A stretch of 64,000 nt of DNA from the NCBI RefSeq assembly GCF_054482525.1, contig NZ_CM137006.1; one strand, given 5' to 3'. Below the pieces are notes generated by a model. That model did no database searches, had not been told where the DNA came from, and saw only the letters and a list, made by a program, of their open reading frames with translations. Below are positions 5,375-12,907 of the stretch, piece after piece; the stretch's first letter is position 1; each line of letters starts with the position of its first letter. A program made the translations under genes and the position numbers.

Positions 5375-6532
5375 TTATTGTCCTGCGAGTTGCTGAAGGG
5401 CTGTGATGACGCGGTCGGCATCGGCGGTGGTCATATCCGGGAACAGCGGCAACGAACAGATGCGTTCGCTATTCCATTCGGTATTCGGTAACGACAGCGT
5501 GGGAAAACGCTCGCGATAATATTTTTGTGTGTGAGCGGCGCGGAAATGTAACCCGGTACCAATGCCTCTTTCTTTTAACGCTTCCATCAACGCATCGCGA
5601 CTGATACCACAACGTTGTTCATCGACACGAATAATAAACAGATGCCAGGCGTGAACGTGCGGCCAGGCGGGAAGGCTTAATGGCTGAAAGGGGAGAGCTG
5701 CCAGTGCTTGCTGATATTGCTGGGCAATTTCGCGCCGACGGGTGTTGAGGTGCTCTAATTTGGCTAACTGGGTCAGGGCAATCGCGGCGTTAATATCGGT
5801 CAGATTATACTTATAGCCCGGCGTTAAGACTTCAGCTTGCGGTGCACGGCCCCAGGTTTGTCTGTCATAGGCATCGACACCCAGACCGTGAAATTTTAGC
5901 ATCCGTAGCTGGCGGGCAAGGTTTTCATTATCAGTAACAATCAGGCCACCTTCCGCACAGGTAATATTTTTGATGGCGTGAAACGAAAAAATAGCGGTAC
6001 CTTTTGCGCCAATATGTCGGCCTTTGTAATACGTACCGACGGCATGGGCAGCATCTTCGATAACTGCGATGCCGTAACGTTCGCCAATGGCGCGAATGGC
6101 GTCAATATCTGCTGGCGCACCGGCATAATGCACCGGAATGATGGCTTTAGTGCGTGGCGTAATGGCTGACTCGATCGCTTCAGGCGTGACCATCAGCGTA
6201 TCGCGGTCGACATCCACCATTACCGGCGTTGCACCCAACAAGGAGATCATATTGAGGGTTGAAACCCAGGTCAGGGAAGGCGTAATCACTTCATCGCCCT
6301 TGCCAATTTCCAACGCCATTAGCGTGATATGCATTCCGGCGGTGGCTGAACTGACCGCGATGGCATGCTGATTTCCCGTCAACTGGCAAAAGGCTTGTTC
6401 AAGCGCCTGATTCTTCGGACCGGTTGTGATCCAACCGGATTCGAGAACCTCTTTAACTGCAGCGAGTTCCTCCACGCCCATTGCTGGTCGCGAAAAAGGC
6501 AAAAATTCTGACATTGCTTTTCCTTCCGCCAT
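5375..6532 (-). CDS. arnB: UDP-4-amino-4-deoxy-L-arabinose aminotransferase ArnB
   Basis: ORF 5375..6547 contains [28 protein letters not shown]...; start chosen at MAEGK, upstream in-frame start at 6547 also possible. Confidence 0.85.
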
Positions 6533-7888: not shown

Positions 7889-8166
7889 GGGGATATTCCT
7901 TATAAATAAAAAGAAACCATGAGAATACGGTAACTCAGAAATATGTGAAAGTGACAGTAATCTCTTTTGCGATGATAACTGCACTTATTATTATTTTTGT
8001 GTGTATCGATAAAGTGTGTTTATTTTTTCGGCGTTTAATTATTTAAGAAGTATTTAGTTACAATAAGTGACTAGATCCCTTTTTTCGCTCATTGAATCCT
8101 CTGTGCCAGGCAGTACAATCCCGCAGCTTTGGGAATTTTGATTTATTGCTTGTGGGAGAGGGGAAA

Positions 8167-8808: not shown

Positions 8809-10017
8809 ATGTTAAAAGTGGAAATGTTATCCACCGGGGATGAAGTGTTACACGGGCAAATCGTTGACACTAACGCTGCCTGGCTGGCCGATTTTTTCTT
8901 TCATCAGGGGTTGCCTTTAACTCGCCGCAATACGGTGGGGGATAACCTTGATGACTTAGTCACCATTCTTCGCGAACGTAGTCAGCACGCCGATGTGCTG
9001 ATCGTTAACGGCGGGCTGGGGCCGACCAGTGATGATTTAAGCGCACTCGCCGCTGCGACAGCAAAAGGTGAAGGCCTGGTGTTGCATGAAGCCTGGCTCA
9101 AAGAGATGGAACGCTATTTCCACGAACGTGGACGAGTAATGGCACCGAGCAACCGTAAACAAGCGGAGCTACCTGCCAGTGCTGAATTTATCAATAACCC
9201 GGTAGGCACCGCCTGTGGTTTTGCCGTGCAGCTTAATCGTTGCCTGATGTTCTTTACCCCCGGCGTACCGTCAGAATTTAAGGTGATGGTCGAGCACGAA
9301 ATCCTGCCGCGTCTGCGCGAGCGTTTTTCTTTACCACAGCCGCCGGTTTGTCTGCGTTTAACTACCTTTGGTCGTTCGGAAAGCGATCTGGCACAAAGCC
9401 TGGACACTCTACAACTGCCGCCGGGCGTAACAATGGGCTATCGCTCCTCAATGCCTATCATCGAACTGAAACTCACCGGACCGGCAAGCGAGCAACAGGC
9501 GATGGAAAAACTGTGGCTGGACGTTAAACGTGTTGCCGGACAGAGCGTGATTTTCGAAGGCACCGAAGGACTGCCCGCGCAGATCAGTCGCGAATTGCAA
9601 AACCGCCAGTTCAGCCTGACGTTGAGCGAGCAATTCACCAGCGGTTTATTGGCTTTGCAACTTTCTCGCGCAGGTGCTCCATTGCTGGCGTGTGAAGTGG
9701 TTCCTTCACAGGAAGAAACCCTGGCGCAAACTGCGCACTGGATTACAGAACGGCGGGCCAACCATTTTGCCGGGCTGGCACTGGCTGTTTCGGGTTTCGA
9801 GAACGAGCATCTCAACTTTGCGCTAGCCACGCCAGATGGCACTTTCGCTCTGCGTGTACGTTTCAGCACTACACGCTACAGCCTGGCTATCCGTCAGGAA
9901 GTGTGCGCAATGATGGCACTGAATATGCTGCGCCGTTGGTTAAACGGCCAGGACATTGCCAGTGAGCATGGCTGGATTGAGGTTGTTGAGTCCATGACCT
10001 TATCCAGTGCGCCGTAA
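8809..10017 (+). CDS. yfaY: CinA-like competence/damage-inducible protein YfaY
   Basis: 402-aa ORF beginning MLKVEMLSTGDEVLHGQIVDTNAAWLADFF...; stop is 3 nt before the IS left-end hairpin, so the last codons may be IS-derived. Confidence 0.85.
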   Translation: MLKVEMLSTGDEVLHGQIVDTNAAWLADFFFHQGLPLTRRNTVGDNLDDLVTILRERSQHADVLIVNGGLGPTSDDLSALAAATAKGEGLVLHEAWLKEMERYFHERGRVMAPSNRKQAELPASAEFINNPVGTACGFAVQLNRCLMFFTPGVPSEFKVMVEHEILPRLRERFSLPQPPVCLRLTTFGRSESDLAQSLDTLQLPPGVTMGYRSSMPIIELKLTGPASEQQAMEKLWLDVKRVAGQSVIFEGTEGLPAQISRELQNRQFSLTLSEQFTSGLLALQLSRAGAPLLACEVVPSQEETLAQTAHWITERRANHFAGLALAVSGFENEHLNFALATPDGTFALRVRFSTTRYSLAIRQEVCAMMALNMLRRWLNGQDIASEHGWIEVVESMTLSSAP

Positions 10018-10492
10018 AACCCCGTCCTTCAGGGCGGGGATATAAGGCGCGGTTTTCCACCTGACCAGGTGTTTGCTGTTGTTCAATGTATTGGCGGATG
10101 ACGGATATTGGCGCACCTCCGCAGCTACTGGCAAAATAGCCAGGACTCCACAAAACGCCTTTGTAGTAATACCTGACAGCAATATCTGGTCGATCTCGTC
10201 GCAGAAACCTATTCGATATGCCTTTGAGGCTGTTTACCAGACTGAATATCGCCAGTTTTGGAGGATAGTTAATTAACAAATGGACGTGATCTGGTTCGCC
10301 ATCCATTTCAATCAGTTCAGCTTCAAAATCAGCACATACATTTGAAAAGTAAGTGCGTAGTTTTTCTGTCGCGTCATGGTCAAAAATCTGGCGTCGGTAT
10401 TTGGTGACAAAGACCCGGTGAACATGCATCAGGAAAACACAATGCCTTCCACGCCGGATATCGGTTTCTTTTTTCACAGACCAAAGTATCAT
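9887..10492 (-). CDS. tnpA: IS200/IS605 Y1 (HUH) transposase TnpA, ORF extended past the element end
   Basis: Translation has the HUH motif (DHVHLLINYPPK) and catalytic-Tyr helix (VIRQYIEQQ); the ORF continues about 50 codons further, through the left-end hairpin and antisense to the yfaY 3' end. Confidence 0.75.
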   Translation of the reverse strand: MILWSVKKETDIRRGRHCVFLMHVHRVFVTKYRRQIFDHDATEKLRTYFSNVCADFEAELIEMDGEPDHVHLLINYPPKLAIFSLVNSLKGISNRFLRRDRPDIAVRYYYKGVLWSPGYFASSCGGAPISVIRQYIEQQQTPGQVENRALYPRPEGRGFTAHWIRSWTQQPQSSHAHWQCPGRLTNGAAYSVPSLRTLPDG

Positions 10493-11751
10493 TTGGCCTG
10501 TGAAACGACTACAGGCATTTAAATTCCAGTTAAGACCCGGTGGTCAACAGGAGCGTGAAATGAGGCGCTTCGCAGGCGCATGTCGTTTCGTTTTCAATCG
10601 TGCTCTGGCACGTCAGAATGAGAATCATGAGGCCGGTAATAAATACATCCCTTACGGGAAAATGGCTTCCTGGCTGGTTGAGTGGAAAAACGCCACTGAA
10701 ACGCAATGGCTTAAAGATGCCCCCTCACAGCCATTGCAACAGTCACTGAAAGACCTTGAGCGGGCTTACAAAAACTTCTTCCAGAATCGGGCTGCTTTTC
10801 CCCGATTCAAAAAGCGGGGACAGAATGATGCATTCCGCTACCCGCAGGGCGTTAAGCTCGATCAGGAAAACAGCCGTATTTTTCTGCCGAAACTTGGCTG
10901 GATGCGCTACCGGAACAGCCGTCAGGTCACGGGTGTTGTAAAAAATGTCACTGTCAGCCAGTCCTGCGGTAAGTGGTACATCAGTATTCAGACAGAAAGT
11001 GAAGTATCAACTCCGGATCACCCTTCAGCATCAATGGTCGGGCTGGATGCTGGCGTGGCTAAACTCGCCACGCTGTCAGATGGCACAGTCTTTGAGCCTG
11101 TAAACAGTTTTCAGAAAAACCAGAAGACGCTGGCGAGACTTCAGCGACAGTTAAGCCGCAAGGTCAAATTCAGCAACAACTGGCAGAAGCAGAAACGCAA
11201 AATACAGCGACTGCATTCCTGTATCGCAAATATCCGCAGGGACTACCTTCACAAAGTCACAACGACCGTCAGCAAAAACCACGCAATGATAGTCATTGAG
11301 GATTTGAAGGTCAGCAACATGTCAAAGTCAGCAGCGGGTACGGTCAGCCAGCCGGGGCGCAATGTCCGGGCAAAATCAGGTTTAAACCGTTCGATACTGG
11401 ATCAGGGCTGGTATGAAATGCGCCGCCAGCTTGAGTACAAGCAGCTCTGGCGTGGCGGTCAGGTGCTTGCTGTTCCGCCAGCGTACACAAGCCAGCGTTG
11501 CACGTGCTGTGGTCATACAGCGAAAGAAAATCGCCTGTCACAAAGTCAATTCAGATGCCAGGTATGTGGATATACAGCGAACGCCGATGTAAATGGCGCT
11601 CGTAACATTTTAGCGGCGGGGCACGCCGTTCTTGCCTGTGGAGGGATGGTGCAGTCAGGCCGCTCGTTGAAGCAGGAACCCACCGAAATGATTCAGGCGA
11701 CAGCCTGAACGTAGCAGGGATCCACGTTCTTCAGGGCGTGGAGGATGTCAA
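10001..11751 (+). mobile_element. IS200/IS605-family insertion sequence (divergent tnpA + tnpB); boundaries approximate (about +/-20 bp)
   Basis: Y1 transposase and TnpB ORFs bracketed by two similar subterminal hairpins on the same strand: ccccgtccttcagggcgggg (10020..10039) and ccacgttcttcagggcgtgg (11722..11741); rhmT homology resumes about 10 nt after the second hairpin. Confidence 0.8.
10500..11708 (+). CDS. tnpB: TnpB (IS605 OrfB family; RNA-guided RuvC-like endonuclease)
   Basis: 402-aa ORF with GTG start; RuvC-I (VGLDAGV), RuvC-II (IVIEDLKV), zinc finger CTCCGH...CQVCGY and RuvC-III (DVNGARNI) motifs all present. Confidence 0.85.
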
Positions 11752-11767
11752 GTTGGCGCTGTATGTG
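11560..11767 (+). ncRNA. Predicted TnpB-associated omega/reRNA (tnpB 3' end + right-end hairpin + about 16-nt flank-derived guide)
   Basis: Placed by analogy with characterised IS200/IS605 TnpB systems; the right-end hairpin is seen in sequence, the RNA extent is inferred. Confidence 0.3.
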
Positions 11768-12907
11768 CTGGCGTTTCTCGACCGTTCGAATATCGGTTTT
11801 GCCAAACAGACCTACCAGATTGATACCGGGCTGAGTAATGAAGCTTATGCGCTGGGAGCAGGCATTTTCTTTGTGGTATATGCGTTTCTGGGTGTTCCGG
11901 CGAATCTTTTGATGCGCAAACTGGGGGCAAGAACCTGGATTGGTACGACAACACTGCTGTGGGGATTTCTTTCGGCAGCCATGGCATGGGCCGATACTGA
12001 AGCGAAATTTCTGATCGTTCGCACTCTGCTTGGTGCTGCGGAGGCCGGGTTCTTCCCTGGTATGATTTATCTCACCTCGCAATGGTTTCCGCAGCGTAAT
12101 CGCGCCAGCATTATGGGGCTGTTCTATATGGGTGCACCGCTGGCGTTAACACTGGGATCACCGCTTTCCGGCGCGCTGCTGGAGATGCATGGATTTATGG
12201 GGCATCCCGGCTGGTTCTGGATGTTTGTGATTGAAGGATTGCTGGCAGTCGGCGCTGGGGTATTCACATTCTTTTGGCTTGATGACACACCGGAGCAGGC
12301 ACGTTTTCTGAGTAAACAAGAAAAAACGTTGCTTATCAATCAACTGGCAAGTGAAGAACAACAGAAAGTGACTTCTCGATTGAGCGATGCGCTGCGTAAT
12401 GGCCGAGTCTGGCAACTGGCGATTATCTACCTGACCATTCAGGTGGCGGTTTACGGATTAATTTTCTTCCTGCCGACCCAGGTTGCTGCATTGCTGGGGA
12501 CAAAAGTGGGCTTTACGGCGTCGGTGGTCACCGCCATTCCGTGGGTTGCGGTCTTGTTTGGGACCTGGCTTATTCCGCGCTATTCCGATAAAACCGGCGA
12601 ACGGCGTAATGTCGCAGCGCTGTGTGTTGCAGCCATCGGGTTTATTGCCGTGCAGCCGGTGTTCTGGACGATGCCGACACAACTTCTTTCCGGTACGGCG
12701 CTGGCTGCGGGGATTGGTTTTATAAACCTGTTTGGTGCAGTGGGCGGGTTTATTGCCCCGATCCTGCGCGTGAAAGCAGAAACGTTATTTTCCAGCGATG
12801 CGGCGGGATTACTGACGCTGGCAGCGGTGGCGGTCATCGGTTCACTGATTATTTTCACTCTGCGTGTAAATCACACTGTTGCGCAGACCGACGTGGCACA
12901 TCATTAA
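11752..12907 (+). pseudogene. rhmT: 5'-truncated L-rhamnonate MFS transporter rhmT (yfaV), missing about 40 N-terminal codons
   Basis: Translation from ...LALYVLAFLDRSNIGFAKQTYQIDTGL... matches RhmT from about residue 45 onward; sequence upstream is IS. An in-frame GTG inside the IS end (11738) could drive a fusion product. Confidence 0.75.

Follow-up and report, generated by a model that had tools for sequence, protein, structure and literature searches.

The stretch of DNA that we analysed (the window, 64,000 nucleotides of contig NZ_CM137006.1 from assembly GCF_054482525.1) carries the genes yfaZ, yfaY, tnpA, tnpB, yfaV and yfaU in that order. We found the same order in 189 of 5426 complete E. 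coli genomes, 042 among them. This region of the window is 100% identical to E. coli PCN033, and strain 19KM1776 is equal to it. The tnpA and tnpB genes belong to a complete IS609 copy which is 97.7% identical to the O157:H7 IS609 copy (1752 nt). Here we use IS609 as the name that RefSeq gives to the O157:H7 tnpA ("IS200/IS605-like element IS609 family transposase", WP_000604943.1). RefSeq annotates the tnpA of the window as a pseudogene with coordinates that correspond to 10067..10492, and PGAP places its "missing C-terminus" pseudogene flag on the tnpA of the window, 042, K-12, O104:H4 and M217. That this tnpA is a pseudogene of a known insertion sequence was thus already known from earlier annotation. 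The features of the locus are collected in Table 1.

Table 1. Features of the IS609 locus, in window coordinates.
Feature	Coordinates	Strand	Remarks
yfaY, chimeric 3' end	8809..10017	+	final 14 nt, with the TAA stop, come from the IS
Tail after codon 144	9887..10060	-	19 IS codons (10060..10004), 38 antisense codons (10003..9890), stop TAG (9889..9887)
TTAT target / left cleavage tetranucleotide	10000..10003	+	within yfaY codons ACC-TTA-TC
Complete IS609 copy, 1748 bp	10004..11751	+ (= top strand)	four-locus alignments and K-12 homology breaks
Left-end imperfect palindrome	10009..10050	.	outer stem GCGCC/GGCGC
Left inner hairpin	10020..10039	.	CCCCGTCC-TTCA-GGGCGGGG, one T.G mismatch
Codon 144 stop-loss site	10061..10063	-	CAG here, TAG in the reference and outgroups
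Canonical tnpA codons 1-143, Y1 HUH transposase	10064..10492	-	PF01797; homologue C-termini
tnpB (insQ), 402 aa, intact	10500..11708	+	Pfam HTH_OrfB_IS605 PF12323, OrfB_IS605 PF01385, Cas12f1-like_TNB PF07282
Presumed omega-RNA scaffold: tnpB 3' end and right end	11635..11751	+	Rfam matches below threshold
Right-end hairpin	11722..11741	+	CCACGTTC-TTCA-GGGCGTGG, T.G mismatch, mirrors the left-end hairpin
Right cleavage site TCAA	11748..11751	+	right boundary from five-locus alignment
yfaV (rhmT), 5'-truncated	11752..12907	+	abuts the right end; K-12 first 62 nt missing

Element ends. We aligned the window with the copies at ytfA (O157:H7 and M217), yeaQ (O104:H4) and ydcL (K-12). The aligned copies share a conserved block that begins with the TTAT and ends with ...GGAGGATGTCAA at 11751, and homology to K-12 breaks off at 10004 and restarts at 11752. 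A TTAT lies directly 5' of the element at all five independent sites (yfaY, ytfA, yeaQ, ydcL and yidH), and the same TTAT is present in the uninterrupted yfaY of K-12. The fifth site, yidH, also has TCAA at its right terminus. The right flanks of the five loci are unrelated (GTTGG, CACAT, GACAC, TATCG and TTTGA), and the five-locus comparison revealed no direct repeats of the kind left by target-site duplication. In a survey of the IS605 group, the left cleavage site is most often TTAT and the right one most often TCAA (PMC9956272).

The left palindrome is kept across loci and also in Photorhabdus. It folds as DNA at -14.2 kcal/mol (z=-2.97) and as RNA at -28.0 kcal/mol on the plus strand (z=-4.0) and -23.1 kcal/mol on the minus strand (z=-3.7). 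With a Y1 HUH transposase, subterminal imperfect palindromes and a fixed tetranucleotide 5' of the insertion, the element has the hallmarks of the IS200/IS605 family; having tnpA plus a tnpB with HTH, RuvC-like and zinc-ribbon domains places it in the IS605 group. The copy in the window lacks the intact 143-aa TnpA, ending at the conserved stop, that marks an autonomous IS609. IS608 of Helicobacter pylori is the mechanistic model for this family. Both IS608 and the element in the window have a Y1 HUH transposase, subterminal hairpins with a mismatched T and a right end of TCAA, and both insert 3' of a tetranucleotide, which is TTAC for IS608 and TTAT here (PMC5027513, PMC3201880). Just 5' of the left hairpin there is an AAAA in the window and an AAAG in IS608, a difference in step with that between TTAT and TTAC. 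The tnpA and tnpB genes of IS608 are co-directional, whereas those in the window are divergent, as in IS605, with their start codons 7 bp apart. With this arrangement the 3' end of tnpA abuts the left end, so a lost stop lets the reading frame leave the element. A literature search on the tnpA, target site and TnpB recognition motif of IS609 returned nothing specific to this element beyond surveys.

The left boundary falls 14 nt inside the yfaY reading frame, so the element supplies the last yfaY codons and the stop. In K-12 the gene ends with ACC TTA TCT GTC TGA (...ESMTLSV*, 400 aa), and in the window with ACC TTA TCC AGT GCG CCG TAA (...ESMTLSSAP*, 402 aa); the insertion thus swaps one YfaY residue for three and provides the stop codon. 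The original prediction had put the end of the element after the yfaY stop, and this estimate has to be corrected leftward by 14 nt, to 10004. The prediction had also allowed that the end might be placed differently, and had named identity of the yfaY 3' end with IS-free strains up to 10017 as the sign of this. When we compared the window with IS-free K-12, the identity stopped at 10004. The end was therefore misplaced as it had allowed, but in the direction opposite to the one it had considered. The proposed overlap of tnpA with yfaY is likewise 131 nt long as described, but 14 nt of it (10004..10017) belong to the element, and only 117 nt are native yfaY.

The minus-strand frame (9887..10492 in the ORF listing, 201 aa, ATG start) gives a full-length match to Pfam Y1_Tnp (PF01797) over residues 18-139, with E=6.3e-40. 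Its HUH motif is H69-V-H71 and its catalytic tyrosine is Y135 in IRQYIEQQ. These residues are kept in the homologue alignment, so that Pfam and alignment agree with the motif and tyrosine helix first picked out by eye. The O157:H7 TnpA (WP_000604943.1) is intact, with 143 aa and a TAG at codon 144. Among the matches listed in the database search, homologues with 77-84% identity are 138, 143 or 146 aa long and come from genera that include Salmonella, Photorhabdus, Morganella, Proteus, Klebsiella, Yersinia and Xenorhabdus. We aligned one homologue from each of the first six genera, and in all six the C-terminus, QQQTP followed by G, S or D, is at residue 143 with no tail comparable to that of the window. 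None of the listed homologues from genera other than Escherichia is long-tailed.

As judged from these sequences, the tnpA stop was lost through a change of TAG to CAG at codon 144. Position 10063 of the window is G instead of A, a single T-to-C transition in the sense of the gene. In the DNA of the Salmonella and Photorhabdus relatives codon 144 is likewise TAG, and the left end after it is related to that of the window copy and, in Photorhabdus, nearly identical. TAG is thus the ancestral state and CAG a derived stop loss. Compared with the O157:H7 copy at ytfA, which has the same ends, TTAT on the left, TCAA on the right, divergent genes 7 bp apart and a 402-aa TnpB, the window differs in having CAG in place of TAG, 201 codons in place of a 143-aa TnpA, and the changes L26R, S83F and L96F along with other substitutions. 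Of these, L26R and L96F affect residues that hardly vary in the alignment. The K-12 copy (ydcL-insQ-ydcO) resembles the window in having CAG at codon 144, a tnpA pseudogene and an intact insQ, but its tnpA is further interrupted by a stop at codon 96, and it is a simple insertion without a flanking deletion.

The suspicion that the normal stop had been lost is borne out by the TAG of O157:H7, Salmonella and Photorhabdus, and the frame does continue past TnpA and through the left-end hairpin, for 58 codons beyond residue 143 to a stop at 9889..9887. With the stop lost and no other in-frame stop in the element, the frame crosses the 60-nt left end into flanking DNA. The extension consists of 20 left-end IS codons (QVENRALYPRPEGRGFTAHW, 10063..10004) and 38 codons antisense to the TTAT and yfaY. 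Its length is unremarkable, as 58 random codons would lack a stop with a chance of about (61/64)^58 = 0.06. Read-through proteins have in common the IS-encoded stretch QVENRA[L/V]YPREG[R/W]GFTAH[R/W]I, in which copies differ by single substitutions. Read-through frames at other insertion sites are 168, 204 and 320 aa long and unrelated beyond these 20 residues. Since the tails differ by locus and the homologues have none, the 58-codon tail is a positional accident and not a feature of the family, and the 201-codon frame should not be named as a transposase with a novel tail. It might be argued that the boundary was misjudged, that the frame ends normally within the element and that TnpA of this family is long-tailed. 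The first estimate of the boundary was indeed 14 nt off, but the corrected position makes the frame leave the element even earlier and the aligned proteins from other genera stop at residue 143, so we give this explanation next to no credence.

To see how common the lost stop is, we searched the 5426 complete E. coli genomes for 31-mers centred on the codon-144 site. For the CAG form we obtained 6606 matches, spread over 4186 genomes, and for the TAG form 1391, spread over 1255. About 83% of IS609 copies are thus without the TAG stop, and the allele that lacks it predominates. A sequencing or assembly error at 10063 would also explain the G, and we discount this entirely because the same 31-mer is found at those 6606 places in 4186 complete genomes. 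At the yfaY locus itself, codon 144 was read in two of the 189 copies. The ytfA site has TAG in O157 and CAG in M217; the yeaQ site has TAG in O91, JS426 and WGI31CT and CAG in O104, and only 8 differences in 1752 nt separate the yeaQ copies of O104 and O91. The presence of TAG and CAG at orthologous sites points to a polymorphism that is moved around by recurrent mutation, gene conversion or recombination between strains. For the window copy we considered gene conversion from the ytfA copy of the same genome, and this was ruled out by 38 differences between the two. Relative to both the ytfA copy and the 042 orthologue, the window copy has about 22 substitutions of its own.

Pooled over six copies, pN/pS is about 1.07 for tnpA codons 1-143, a value from pairs that are not independent and have 0-3 synonymous differences each, and about 0.26 for tnpB. 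Internal stops in tnpA are found in the K-12 copy (codon 96) and in the second PCN033 copy (ytfA), and the yidH copies of IS609 are frameshifted. In contrast, tnpB is intact in every complete copy that we examined. The best reading is that the transposase gene is decaying while the tnpB beside it is maintained. Most tnpA genes of IS609 in E. coli are stop-less and appear to drift neutrally while tnpB is constrained, which fits the picture of TnpB outliving the transposase.

A different view of the long frame is that it encodes a working, extended transposase which tolerates its tail, and that stop-less copies still move. The HUH motif and the tyrosine are intact and the stop-less allele is present at four sites or more (CAG was seen at yfaY, ytfA, yeaQ and ydcL, and in about 83% of copies), so an extended TnpA could keep some activity; the first 20 residues of the tail are also common to the copies. 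However, beyond those residues the tail is different at every site, tnpA pN/pS is near 1, several CAG copies have internal stops as well, and the copy in the window carries L26R and L96F. IS609 insertions, at about two copies per genome, give the impression of being old and passed on vertically, and no new IS609 insertions were seen in K-12 mutation-accumulation lines (PMC5009759). The alternation of TAG and CAG at orthologous sites also fits mutation or gene conversion and not a spread by transposition. We therefore regard an active extended transposase as improbable, and the CAG allele is probably a null or a hypomorph.

We also considered that the stop-less allele was selected because it silences TnpA and immobilises the element while TnpB and its guide RNA are kept, as a step to domestication. 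This would account for CAG being the majority allele, for its recurrence on backgrounds that are nearly the same (yeaQ in O104 and in O91) and for purifying selection on tnpB but not on tnpA. Drift, gene conversion and strain-to-strain recombination give the same pattern, though, and the occurrence of other lesions, both internal stops and frameshifts, indicates that there is nothing special about the codon-144 site. Selection for the stop loss thus seems to us a poor bet. We are confident instead that the window holds a structurally complete but transposase-defective IS609 copy, in which the tnpA stop is lost, the tail is positional and tnpB is intact. The original suggestion of a disabled or fixed element fits with the RefSeq pseudogene, with an insertion common to 189 genomes and with there being no empty or intermediate form of this site in the 5426.

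The 3' end of tnpB together with the right end is the presumed omega-RNA scaffold. When we searched the right end against Rfam, the matches were all below threshold (RAGATH-18 at 26.5 bits with a cut-off of 44.9, and HgcC at 19.1 with a cut-off of 50), so the omega-RNA assignment is an inference. The fold of the presumed scaffold region is not significant (z=-1.6), and a hairpin over the tnpB start (10496..10516) folds as RNA no better than shuffled sequence (z=-0.3). The uninterrupted yfaV of K-12 reads ...CCGTTTAT|GTTGGCGCTGTATGTGC..., the same as the right flank in the window, with a TTAT before it. Because this TTAT-preceded flank is intact K-12 yfaV, as would be expected of a homing target, the presumed guide of this TnpB would, on the published TnpB model, match the uninterrupted allele, and its target would be TTAT followed by GTTGGCGCTGTATGTG in that allele.

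Transcription at the left end. The end-proximal hairpin of IS200 in Salmonella is terminator-like in both directions. IS200 is without tnpB, unlike the element in the window, but the left-end hairpin here resembles that of IS200 in being strong on both strands and could act as a terminator in the same way. In the RNA folds a run of four U lies just after a stem on both strands; our terminator scan, with its requirement of 5 T in 8 nt, did not call the hairpin. Around the 7-bp gap between the divergent genes, a scan for sigma-70-like promoters found none for either tnpA or tnpB. The left-end hairpin may stop both the yfaY and the tnpA transcripts. If the tnpA transcript does end there, the message of the CAG allele would be without a stop codon and its product would be unstable. 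That tnpA transcription might interfere with yfaY, as had been proposed, is pure speculation.

Flanking deletion. In the window the element stands in place of 2348 bp of K-12 sequence, which comprise the final 7 nt of yfaY, the genes yfaX and rhmD, and the initial 62 nt of yfaV. The K-12 junctions are ...ACCTTAT|CTGTCTGA on the left and ...CCGTTTAT|GTTGGCGCTG on the right, so both breakpoints are directly after a TTAT. There are 15 TTATs in the 2.39 kb that we examined, and a random endpoint would fall right after one about 0.6% of the time. From this we infer that the target specificity of the transposase set both deletion junctions.

There are two routes by which this could have happened. 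In a one-step route, IS609 would insert at the yfaY TTAT and the transposase would then cleave the right end as in excision. The left-end guide would engage the downstream TTAT on the same strand, the right end would be joined to GTTGG, and the interval would be released as a single-stranded circle. In IS608, the left-end guide reads the target just as it reads the left flank (PMC5027513). In a two-step route, two copies inserted in the same orientation at both TTATs would have recombined homologously with each other. Among the 5426 genomes we found no case in which the left end follows the yfaV TTAT, in which the right end leads into the sequence downstream of yfaY, or in which the deletion is present without the element. 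With no intermediates in these genomes, the one-step and two-step routes both fit. That the IS609 transposase itself made the 2348-bp loss in one step is a tentative idea that we lean against. We know of no documented case of an adjacent deletion made by the transposase of an IS200/IS605 element.

A stop-less tnpA copy matters little for biology at large, and the deletion from TTAT to TTAT is the only mildly unusual aspect of this locus. If the specificity of the transposase did set the junctions, then the replacement would show, in a clean natural case, an IS200/IS605 element determining where a deletion begins and ends. In 189 genomes, the L-rhamnonate pathway has thereby lost its regulator and its dehydratase. 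The truncated yfaV has its sole possible start codons within the element, and RefSeq places its start at window position 11705, within the 3' end of tnpB. In this lineage, both the end of yfaY and the end of yfaV are therefore chimeras with the insertion sequence.

In the window, 2348 bp of K-12 sequence have been exchanged for IS609 (see the table for coordinates and for the genes affected). TTAT, which is the target of IS609, directly precedes both deletion breakpoints. The structure with IS609 in place of the 2348 bp is common to 189 of the 5426 complete genomes searched, and junction searches across 5426 complete genomes found neither an intermediate nor a deletion without the IS.

Coordinates of features at the IS609 insertion and in related loci
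Feature	Sequence	Position	Remark
K-12 sequence missing			last 7 nt of yfaY, yfaX, rhmD, first 62 nt of yfaV
Deletion junctions	window	10000-10003 and 11752
Two TTATs	K-12 locus (L003)	5559-5562 and 7907-7910	reverse strand
Third base of left end	window	10006
Cluster of private substitutions	window	10178..10721
tnpA and tnpB start codons, with hairpin	window	10492-10516	divergent, 7 bp apart
Sub-threshold Rfam matches	window	11635-11764
Right end with start of yfaV frame	window	11705-11760
RefSeq yfaV start	window	11705	CTG
Alternative yfaV start	window	11738	GTG
11-bp repeat in yfaV	window	12612-12622
IS609 copy of WGI31CT	L012	3054-3400	yeaQ site

The right end of IS609 now contains the start of the yfaV (rhmT) reading frame. 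The start chosen by RefSeq overlaps the tnpB stop, and a second start is possible further on. Because the frame opens inside the IS right end, the N-terminus of YfaV is an IS/yfaV chimera that is without the first 21 native codons. There is also an extra 72-bp in-frame deletion within the yfaV of this genome when compared to K-12 and strain 042; its limits are marked by an 11-bp repeat, which shows up as the overlap between two BLAST segments. The yfaV product is 400 aa here versus 424 aa in 042. The 72-bp deletion is in keeping with decay of the orphaned rhamnonate genes.

Rfam gave two sub-threshold matches, RAGATH-18 (26.5 bits) and HgcC (19.1 bits), which span the tnpB 3' end and the right end, the expected place of the TnpB guide RNA. 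In the sub-threshold HgcC match, it is the 3' end of the consensus that resembles the right-end hairpin and GGAGGAxGUCA. At the third base of the left end, both yfaY-site copies and the ytfA copy of PCN033 have A (CCAGTG), and every other IS609 copy examined has G (CCGGTG).

About 22 substitutions are private to the window copy when it is compared both with its 042 orthologue and with the second copy of PCN033. Most of them (18) cluster across the tnpA/tnpB divergent region, which suggests that this patch came in from another variant of IS609; AIFSL...ISNR is common to P0019-like proteins. With divergent starts only 7 bp apart, each promoter must sit within the opposite gene. A hairpin with a 7-bp stem extends over the GTG at which tnpB starts, 3 nt upstream of the ATG of tnpA, and in a folding test this start-region hairpin was no more stable than shuffled sequence.

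Both TAG, the ancestral stop, and CAG, the stop-loss allele, occur at tnpA codon 144 within one orthologous site, and this is true of both yeaQ (L006, L008) and ytfA (L004, L005). Between the two yeaQ-site copies there are just 8 differences in 1752 nt. The pattern is a sign of recurrent mutation, gene conversion or between-strain recombination acting on the single base at codon 144.

Strain WGI31CT has a yeaQ-site IS609 with an intact 143-aa tnpA. This copy breaks off approximately 130 nt into tnpB, and the sequence continues with a 5S rRNA gene and the yjaB-metA region. The junction indicates a rearrangement with its breakpoint within IS609.
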